NCBI RefSeq assembly: GCF_035594765.1
Contig: NC_085843.1
Location: 126,395,971 to 126,459,970 of the forward strand
Direction: 5' to 3'
Length of the DNA stretch: 64,000 nucleotides
From: Anolis carolinensis
Lineage: Eukaryota
In this document: positions 46,411 to 47,488 of the stretch, piece after piece
How positions within the stretch are numbered: the first letter of the stretch is position 1
Layout: every line of letters begins with the position of its first letter
Translations under genes and position numbers: made by a program
The notes under the pieces: generated by a model
What the model was told of the DNA's origin: nothing
What the model saw: only the letters and a program-made list of their open reading frames with translations
Databases searched by the model: none

Positions 46411-47488
46411 TGTTATGGTTGAGCCTTATGGCTCCGATACTGGGAGACGTGGTCGTAAGACTCCTTGGGAGTTAGACTCTCTTGAGGAGCGAGAAAGGAA
46501 ACGGCTGCGGGACTTATTTGCAGAACCAACTGACGAAGACTCCTTTGAGGGTTTTACGGAGGGAATGGAGGAAGAGATGGTTAGCTCAGAGGAGGATGAC
46601 ATGGAATGGACTCGTGTGAGGGAGGACTTGGGTGCCACCGGCAATAATAGTGTGGGAGGTGACTGGGGGGTTTCAGGATTAGACCCGTGGACGAGCTGGA
46701 GGGATGGAACGGGATCCACAGCTGGGGATGCTGTGGGTCGTAGTCAAAGGTGTTTTAGCTCTGATGAGGAGGATGATGATGAGGCACCTGGAATTAGGGT
46801 AACAGCTGACAGCGATGAGGAGTTATGAACTGGCATAAAATGGGGTTTAGAATCCAGGGCTAATTGCGTTGGGCAAGGTAATCTGGACGAACGCTTGGGC
46901 TCTTGTTGGGGAATTTCCTGAAGACGGGTGTGATTCGTTTGCTGAATACCTTGGACCTCCGTCGTCTTTTTGACGGACATTAATTGCCTACTCTGGATTG
47001 ACGCTGGACTGACTGACTGACTACGACCTCGGACTATCCCTTCTGTGGCTATCGGTGGAACTGGTGAACTAAAAAGACGCCTGTACCTGGCTTTCGACCT
47101 TGGACCGGATTGGGACCCCGCTGACCGCTGCTACCCTGATTGATGTGTTTGGACCCGGAGTTCGCTTGCTGCACGGAGGAGTAACAACTTTGTTATTCAA
47201 CCACAGCTGTTGAGTAGCAGAGAGGAATCTGCTGCCAGCTATTTACGTTTCATTGAATCTTTGTTTACCAGCTTTTGTTTGTTTAAAGTGCCAGGCTGAA
47301 GTAAGCATTTTTGGTTTAACCCGGATTAAACTCCTGTTTAATCCGGTTTATCTTTTGAACCGTTTTTTAGTATCTTTTCATATTGAAGGCGAGTGTTTGC
47401 CTAGCCCTTTGTTTTTTACGGGCGTTTTTGGTTCTGTATCCTTAATAAACTGTGTTGAATCTTATCTGGTGGCGTTCTGTCTGTGACA
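46411..47488 (+). mobile_element. Solo LTR (probably Gypsy/Ty3-type), young
   Basis: TGTTA...TGACA termini; perfect 5-bp TSD CAACT (46406-46410, 47489-47493); TATA-like CATAAAA near 46834; AATAAA near 47444; CpGs retained. Confidence 0.88.
46415..46828 (+). CDS. Acidic 137-aa ORF within the LTR U3 (putative)
   Basis: Open from the ATG at LTR position 5 to a TGA just upstream of the TATA-like box; contains DLFAEPTDEDSFEGF; expression unverified. Confidence 0.45.
   Translation: MVEPYGSDTGRRGRKTPWELDSLEERERKRLRDLFAEPTDEDSFEGFTEGMEEEMVSSEEDDMEWTRVREDLGATGNNSVGGDWGVSGLDPWTSWRDGTGSTAGDAVGRSQRCFSSDEEDDDEAPGIRVTADSDEEL

Follow-up and report, generated by a model that had tools for sequence, protein, structure and literature searches.

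A candidate mimic of host TND-interacting motifs on the U3-encoded integrase tail of a Ty3/gypsy retrotransposon in Anolis carolinensis

We analysed a stretch of 64,000 nucleotides from the genome of Anolis carolinensis (contig NC_085843.1, forward strand, positions 126,395,971 to 126,459,970), hereafter called the window, from whose first base all positions are counted. The window holds a solo long terminal repeat (LTR) of a high-copy Ty3/gypsy retrotransposon of the Tf1/sushi group, which has been spreading recently in the anole. An open frame of 137 codons in the U3 region of this LTR encodes the C-terminal end of the element's integrase, a tail positioned where relatives have a chromodomain. 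The tail carries a short linear motif that resembles the TND-interacting motifs (TIMs) of host proteins, and at the sequence level mimicry of these is well supported. On balance we slightly favour the view that the tail of this chromodomain-less element mimics TIMs to bind LEDGF or HRP2 and would thereby provide tethering in place of the chromodomain.

A first-pass annotation of the window had described a solo LTR with TG...CA ends and a CAACT duplication, a single U3 frame ending just before a TATA-like box, and a motif in that frame together with acidic Ser/Thr stretches. All of these were found. The LTR, of subfamily 1 of the three that we saw, occupies 46411-47488 (1078 bp, forward strand) and is flanked by copies of CAACT at 46406-46410 and 47489-47493. 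The frame opens with an ATG at 46415 and closes with a TGA at 46826-46828, six bases ahead of CATAAAA (46834-46840). The U3-encoded part of the tail, which begins V-M-V-E in the pol frame, covers 46411-46828. Its peptide carries DLFAEPTDEDSFEGF at 46511-46555, and the whole TIM/IBM-like motif, LRDLFAEPTDEDSFEGF at 46505-46555, can be divided into LRDLF-AEPTDEDS-FEGF, that is, a predicted helix, an acidic Thr/Ser linker and FxGF. Two basic clusters, RRGRK ... RKRLR, lie at 46445-46510 and are conserved in the three subfamilies; they may be a bipartite nuclear localisation signal (NLS). The remaining acidic tail (46556-46825) is probably disordered and contains the CK2-like S-x-x-E/D stretches VSSEEDD, SSDEE and DSDEE. 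A Pfam scan of the 137-aa peptide gave no match, and a query of the ESM Atlas gave no usable one.

A DNA search of the anole's own genome with the LTR returned 2128 candidates, and the 40 that were scored had identities of 96-100%. Four pairs of LTRs were examined; three bounded full-length elements, and in the fourth the LTRs belonged to two separate insertions. The full-length elements have the organization of Ty3/gypsy: two LTRs, a polypurine tract (PPT), gag, and a pol ordered as protease, reverse transcriptase (RT), RNase H (RH) and integrase (IN). The Pfam domains were Retrotrans_gag, Ty3_capsid, DUF4939 and a CCHC knuckle in gag, and protease, RT, RNase H, integrase and SH3_Tf2-1 in pol. 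The closest database proteins were labelled Anolis carolinensis, with identities of up to 100%. In the three copies tested, the 11 bases that follow the 5' LTR were complementary to the LTR from position 455-456 onward, and a compensatory change in subfamily 2 preserves the pairing. Self-priming of this kind, in which the primer-binding site pairs with the 5' end of R and no tRNA primer is used, is a mark of the Tf1/sushi group (PMC6317226; this and the other papers cited by PMC number are drawn on for the sections consulted). From the position of the self-primer (46866-46876, the start of R), we infer that the transcript starts near 46866, 32 nt past the TATA-like box, so that the entire frame lies upstream in U3. 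A likely polyadenylation signal, AATAAA, is at 47444-47449.

The three subfamilies differ pairwise at 60-86 of the 418 nt of the U3 frame. Subfamily 2 is very young, as all of its 40 scored matches were 100% identical and one copy had identical LTRs, and copies of the family are dispersed over all large contigs. The LTR in the window is shorter than most copies by about 75-80 bp (near 46945, LTR position about 539), a form shared by several others. As a solo LTR it is a relic of recombination, and since its transcription would start downstream of the frame, no peptide should be made from it.

The first-pass annotation had left two possibilities for the frame, an integrase tail reading through into the 3' LTR or a separate accessory protein. 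The former is shown and a gene like nef or sag is not supported: in all seven copies read the pol frame continues past the PPT into U3. In three full-length copies, the frame holding the SH3 (GPY/F) module crosses the PPT into the 3' LTR; four further copies have an unbroken Pol of 1212-1214 aa that ends at the U3 stop. Only 32 residues lie between SH3 and the LTR. In subfamily 3, 15 of the 150 scored matches were within frames of 1214 aa.

The 1214-aa Pol had no Chromo match (Pfam, E 0.1), and by structure the element is not a chromovirus, whereas a Chromo match was present in all six related squamate-type proteins scanned outside family C, which is described below. By descent it belongs to the chromovirus lineage: in quick RT-RH-IN trees, built from 50 of 123 eligible rows and then from 22, it was nested with P0004 and P0174 among chromodomain-bearing elements (SH-aLRT 99). 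Family B of the same genome and P0004 of Podarcis have an identical PPT-TG junction and likewise read into U3, with the chromodomain kept and with unrelated tails. Therefore, read-through into U3 is older than the anole motif family, and it is this family that lost the chromodomain.

The two other anole families have features of their own. DEEENLGF and RRS[AL]RIAAK are conserved in the tail of family B (L142 953-1987 (-); L158-L187). The second of these is like RRSARL of P0004 and reminiscent of motifs that bind the nucleosome acidic patch. Within one full-length copy of the motif family, the integrase gene contains a nested 904-bp solo LTR of family B (L033 2068-2971 (-)). Family C (L146 217-5004 (+); L069-L098) is very young and self-priming, with a single gag-pol frame of 1596-1601 aa and LTRs of about 300 bp. 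Its integrase ends 10 residues past the GPY/F module and has neither chromodomain nor tail.

TIMs are described as a helix followed by an acidic Ser/Thr linker of 8-16 residues, with FxGF in addition in the partners of LEDGF and HRP2 (PMC9987994), and a consensus S/E-x-F-x-G-F has been given (PMC7337902). In the three subfamilies the linkers are AEPTDEDS, AAPSDEES and AEPSDEDS, 8 residues each, and the last part reads E-S-F-E-G-F in subfamily 2 and D-S-F-E-G-F in subfamilies 1 and 3, where the first residue is Asp and not Glu. Two zf-4CXXC_R1 genes were located in the anole's own genome, and 50 and 20 kb upstream of them were read for host motifs. The gene on C6, with the motif LADVFNAPSDDEDFFGF, is taken for CDCA7L/JPO2 because it has two motifs, as JPO2 does (PMC9987994); that on C1, with the motif MAEIFKEDSDDESFCGF, would be CDCA7. 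At the corresponding place these host motifs have E-D-F and E-S-F, respectively. The annotation had aligned a JPO2 motif to the peptide without gaps, and the anole CDCA7L gene bears this motif out. The subfamily 2 motif LRDIFAAPSDEESFEGF is identical to CDCA7L motif 1 at 11 of 17 positions and to CDCA7 at 9 of 17, and the window copy at 8 and 7 of 17, all without gaps. The spacing of the element motif and the CDCA7 motif is the same.

After the element and host motifs were known, we composed a pattern of the TIM type ([LIVM]F, then 7-10 residues of which at least three are D/E, then FxGF). Among 200,000 shuffled versions of the peptide, 6 showed it, and it was present at 4 of 267,968 six-frame positions in the window and 70 kb around the two host genes, namely the element and three host motifs. 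As a sequence pattern, the motif is confirmed to be more than chance. Its DNA has no similarity to the host gene outside the motif (13-19 of 60 flanking nt the same), and third codon positions are the same in 3 of the 11 shared residues for subfamily 2 and in 6 of 8 for subfamily 1. Because the flanking DNA is unrelated, recent capture of a CDCA7L exon is unlikely; the likeness may have come from convergence or from an old capture, both of which are compatible with the DNA. A sequence search of the PDB with the motif returned two de novo proteins only. A term search of the main text of PMC7386202 and PMC9976928 found no passage on an IBM in pogo transposases.

The tail is under purifying selection, which is strongest on the motif. 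Between subfamilies 1 and 2 the U3 frame has 85 substitutions and no gaps in 418 nt, and the non-coding LTR has 39 gap blocks in 740 nt. Synonymous sites differ by 47-50% and non-synonymous sites by 13%. In natural copies of these two subfamilies, dN/dS was 0.18-0.20 for the tail, 0.27-0.32 before the motif and 0.22-0.25 after it. Over the 24 codons of helix and motif it was 0.04 (11 synonymous and 4 non-synonymous differences), near the 0.06 of the SH3 module, and the motif differed from the rest of the tail with a Fisher p of 0.05. FEGF was intact in all 95 distinct copies and the frame was full-length in 94, in a sample biased by the picking of copies as top similarity matches. In 48 subfamily-1 copies, with the same bias, the ratio of non-synonymous to synonymous changes was 23:16 for singleton and 14:23 for shared variants (p 0.07). 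Conservation of the frame and of FxGF, which the annotation had proposed to check, is therefore borne out.

Related families also carry such a motif. The pattern was found in 4 of 155 Pol relatives, two of them of the anole motif family and two of Podarcis muralis families (P0171 and P0172), and in 3 of 150 representatives, again two of the anole family and one P0423. In these Podarcis-type proteins (P0171, P0172, P0423), two tandem motifs stand behind the chromodomain and before a PPT-like junction, for example WREMFETSEDEEDSFRGF. All 18 full Podarcis-type tails had the twin motifs, compared with 9-24 per 100,000 shuffles. A further read-through tail follows them, and this lineage is arguably an even better mimic of JPO2. 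Its chromodomain has Glu at the third cage position, which is aromatic in intact chromodomains.

The trees mentioned above placed the anole family apart from the Podarcis pair. One shared origin for the motifs of the anole and of Podarcis was rejected, as their joint grouping had a p-AU of 0.011 under the model, with long branches in play. It may be that an ancestral motif was lost several times; against this, the anole and Podarcis motifs sit on opposite sides of the PPT. When the anole genome was searched with the twin-motif P0423, all 30 loci read of the 90 scored belonged to family B, and no close twin-motif family was seen among them. We tentatively propose that squamate Ty3/gypsy elements have at least twice evolved linear TIM mimics on their integrase tails, which would replace or supplement the chromodomain by LEDGF/HRP2 tethering to H3K36-methylated chromatin, and we put the chances of this slightly below even.

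For the binding itself we used predicted structures. A single-sequence AlphaFold model of the subfamily-2 tail had a mean pLDDT of 46. The best part was a helix at residues 114-126 (pLDDT about 70-78), and in this low-confidence model the helix ends on the first Phe of the motif; the predicted helix in the window copy is EERERKRLRDLF, at 46484-46519. A complex predicted between residues 21-62 and the IBD of anole PSIP1 (P0044) scored 0.40 in three runs, in which contacts agreed to at least 92% and the partner pLDDT was 57; the best of three controls scored 0.01. In the calibration, which covered no peptides, 51 of 78 solved complexes attained the mark, as did 2 of 108 mismatches, and every mismatch that passed scored below 0.60; because IBD-TIM complexes exist in the PDB, a pass may be memory. 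The annotation's suggestion that the motif binds LEDGF or HRP2 is favoured, weakly, by the prediction. We regard binding of the tail to the IBD of LEDGF/HRP2 as likely. The intron-containing PSIP1 (LEDGF) gene shares its contig with a processed pseudogene that has a stop inside the IBD (L065 1500-2049).

In the scheme that we slightly favour, the tail encoded across the PPT into the 3' LTR would stay on the mature integrase, and CK2 would phosphorylate its Thr/Ser linker. The helix, acidic linker and FxGF would mimic host TIMs so as to engage the IBD of LEDGF/p75 or HRP2. In place of the lost chromodomain, this host protein would then anchor the integration complex on H3K36me2/3 chromatin. Such tethering may in turn affect the choice of insertion sites. 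We regard an effect of the tail on this choice as close to evenly balanced, leaning if anything to the negative.

Several observations weigh against this scheme. Family C is abundant without chromodomain or tail, so a replacement module is not required. The motif was seen in 3 of about 300 non-family relatives examined. Podarcis-type elements keep a chromodomain at the Pfam level, so that motif and chromodomain can coexist and are not mutually exclusive. The complex score of 0.40 falls within a range that false passes share, and the contrast between the motif and the rest of the tail comes from one subfamily pair and 24 codons. The distribution of insertions is also unfavourable. Copies outside the six largest contigs were under-represented (10/150 and 12/150, compared with 15.3% of bases), and the GC of the host flanks was not higher (0.39 vs 0.39-0.42). 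The chromodomain-bearing family B was also under-represented there (4/90), and family C was at expectation (22/150). By these two proxies, which are blunt and shaped by selection after insertion, copies were enriched neither on small chromosomes nor in GC-rich flanks, and gene-dense targeting is unsupported.

The absence of such enrichment would suit a real TIM with a role other than site choice, which we consider unlikely and yet the most credible of the alternatives. The tail would then engage LEDGF/HRP2 or another TND factor (IWS1, TFIIS, ELOA, PNUTS, MED26) for chromatin retention, protection from degradation, nuclear retention or keeping the insertion transcribed. The same conservation and mimicry would be expected, and TNDs share a common binding mode (PMC9987994). 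However, FxGF is described as specific to partners of LEDGF and HRP2 (PMC9987994), the known use of LEDGF/HRP2 by integrases is tethering (PMC5053271), and the tail takes the place of a targeting domain.

We find it more doubtful that the tail is an NLS with an acidic disordered spacer, on which the likeness to FxGF is incidental. The two basic clusters do overlap the conserved helix, the entire tail is selected and not the motif alone (dN/dS 0.2), and sister families read into U3 with acidic tails that have no motif. The rarity of the pattern in shuffles, both of the peptide (6/200,000) and of Podarcis-type tails (9-24/100,000), argues against this explanation, as do the 11/17 identity of subfamily 2 to a host ligand and the second lineage in which the motif is doubled as in JPO2.

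We give very little weight to a free accessory protein made from ATG 46415, like HIV nef or MMTV sag, whether instead of the integrase tail or in addition to it. This ATG opens the frame in all three subfamilies. However, it belongs to the TG-end of the LTR, a conserved stretch common to families with unrelated tails (TGTTATG, TGTGATG) and to plant CRM LTRs (TGATG). Because of this, and because transcription is inferred to begin at 46866, about 450 nt downstream of it, the ATG is probably not a start codon, and with a frame continuous with pol we rejected a separate U3 gene as the principal explanation. Four sequencing runs, presumed to be RNA, covered all 30 bins without a splice joint into the U3 frame; being contigs of uncertain kind, they weigh neither for nor against such a protein. 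Some RefSeq gene models do take in the frame through exonisation of an LTR: P0279 (XP_062830654.1) and P0464 (XP_062838049.1), one of them named as an OGFRL1 isoform, include or cluster with it, and exonisation could possibly put the motif on host proteins. Lastly, U3 is established regulatory DNA, but the idea that the frame was kept only as a by-product of constraint on the promoter is refuted by the codon pattern (47-50% synonymous and 13% non-synonymous differences, no indels) and deserves almost no credence.

Elsewhere in the window, GC-rich promoter-like stretches are found at 54900-55250 and 7269-8100. A frame at 55075-55221, about 7.5 kb downstream of the LTR, presumably resembles the first exon of DOCK9; searches of the PDB and Pfam with it gave no match. 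A long pyrimidine-rich tract of low complexity covers 55290-57350, and a 51/62-bp tandem array covers 59589-60248.

To our knowledge, only a few integrases have a known host tether. In the literature that we searched, which included few subscription papers and no supplements, no host tether for a vertebrate Ty3/gypsy was found, and no TIM, IBM or FxGF motif in a retrotransposon integrase was found there either, repeat databases being outside that search. The viral-mimicry section of PMC9987994 names lentiviral integrases only. If our favoured scheme is true, a vertebrate retrotransposon that has been spreading recently uses a 17-residue mimic of JPO2 to hijack LEDGF/HRP2. This would be the first natural integrase with a TIM and a convergence with HIV on a single host hub, reached by a second, independent route through peptide mimicry instead of a folded interface. 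It would also offer a natural experiment, in which three families of one genome (with chromodomain, with TIM tail and with no tail) could be compared over thousands of insertions.

Among the closest known systems are the host TIM/IBM ligands CDCA7L (JPO2), CDCA7, IWS1, KMT2A, DPF3a and POGZ, with which the tail shares a helix, in its case a predicted one, an acidic phosphorylatable linker and FxGF in a disordered region. They differ in being regulators of the host, and their DNA has no similarity to the element outside the motif. In its gag (Ty3 capsid/DUF4939 and CCHC), PR-RT-RH-IN order (PR, protease), SH3 (GPY/F) module, self-priming and 5-bp duplication, the anole family agrees with the vertebrate Tf1/sushi-group chromoviruses of the V-clade, such as Amn-san, Amn-ichi and Sushi-ichi (Table 2 of PMC6317226). 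This placement is by features and not by a labelled branch, our tree having no named reference element, and the family differs from that clade in the absence of a chromodomain and in its U3-encoded acidic tail with a TIM-like motif.

The same read-through anatomy exists in the plant CRM group A chromoviruses, whose integrase tail bears the CR motif (PMC3059260, PMC6317226). They are of another clade and kingdom, and we claim likeness of anatomy and no homology. The CR motif goes with centromeric targeting and its partner is not identified in the consulted sections of these two papers, whereas the anole tail has a short linear motif like a known host ligand.

HIV integrase contacts the IBD by means of a folded surface and not by a linear TIM. 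The parallel with HIV that the annotation had drawn can be kept for the proposed host domain, the IBD/TND of LEDGF and HRP2, but not for the mode of binding, which in the anole element, a retrotransposon without env, would be by helix, acidic linker and FxGF. The closest working parallel is the integrase of murine leukemia virus (MLV), in which a short BET-binding motif in the flexible C-terminal tail recruits a host chromatin reader (PMC5053271). There the partner is the BET ET domain, the targets are enhancers and the interaction is experimentally proven, whereas for the anole element binding is predicted; the logic, a short motif on the integrase tail for a host chromatin reader, would be the same.
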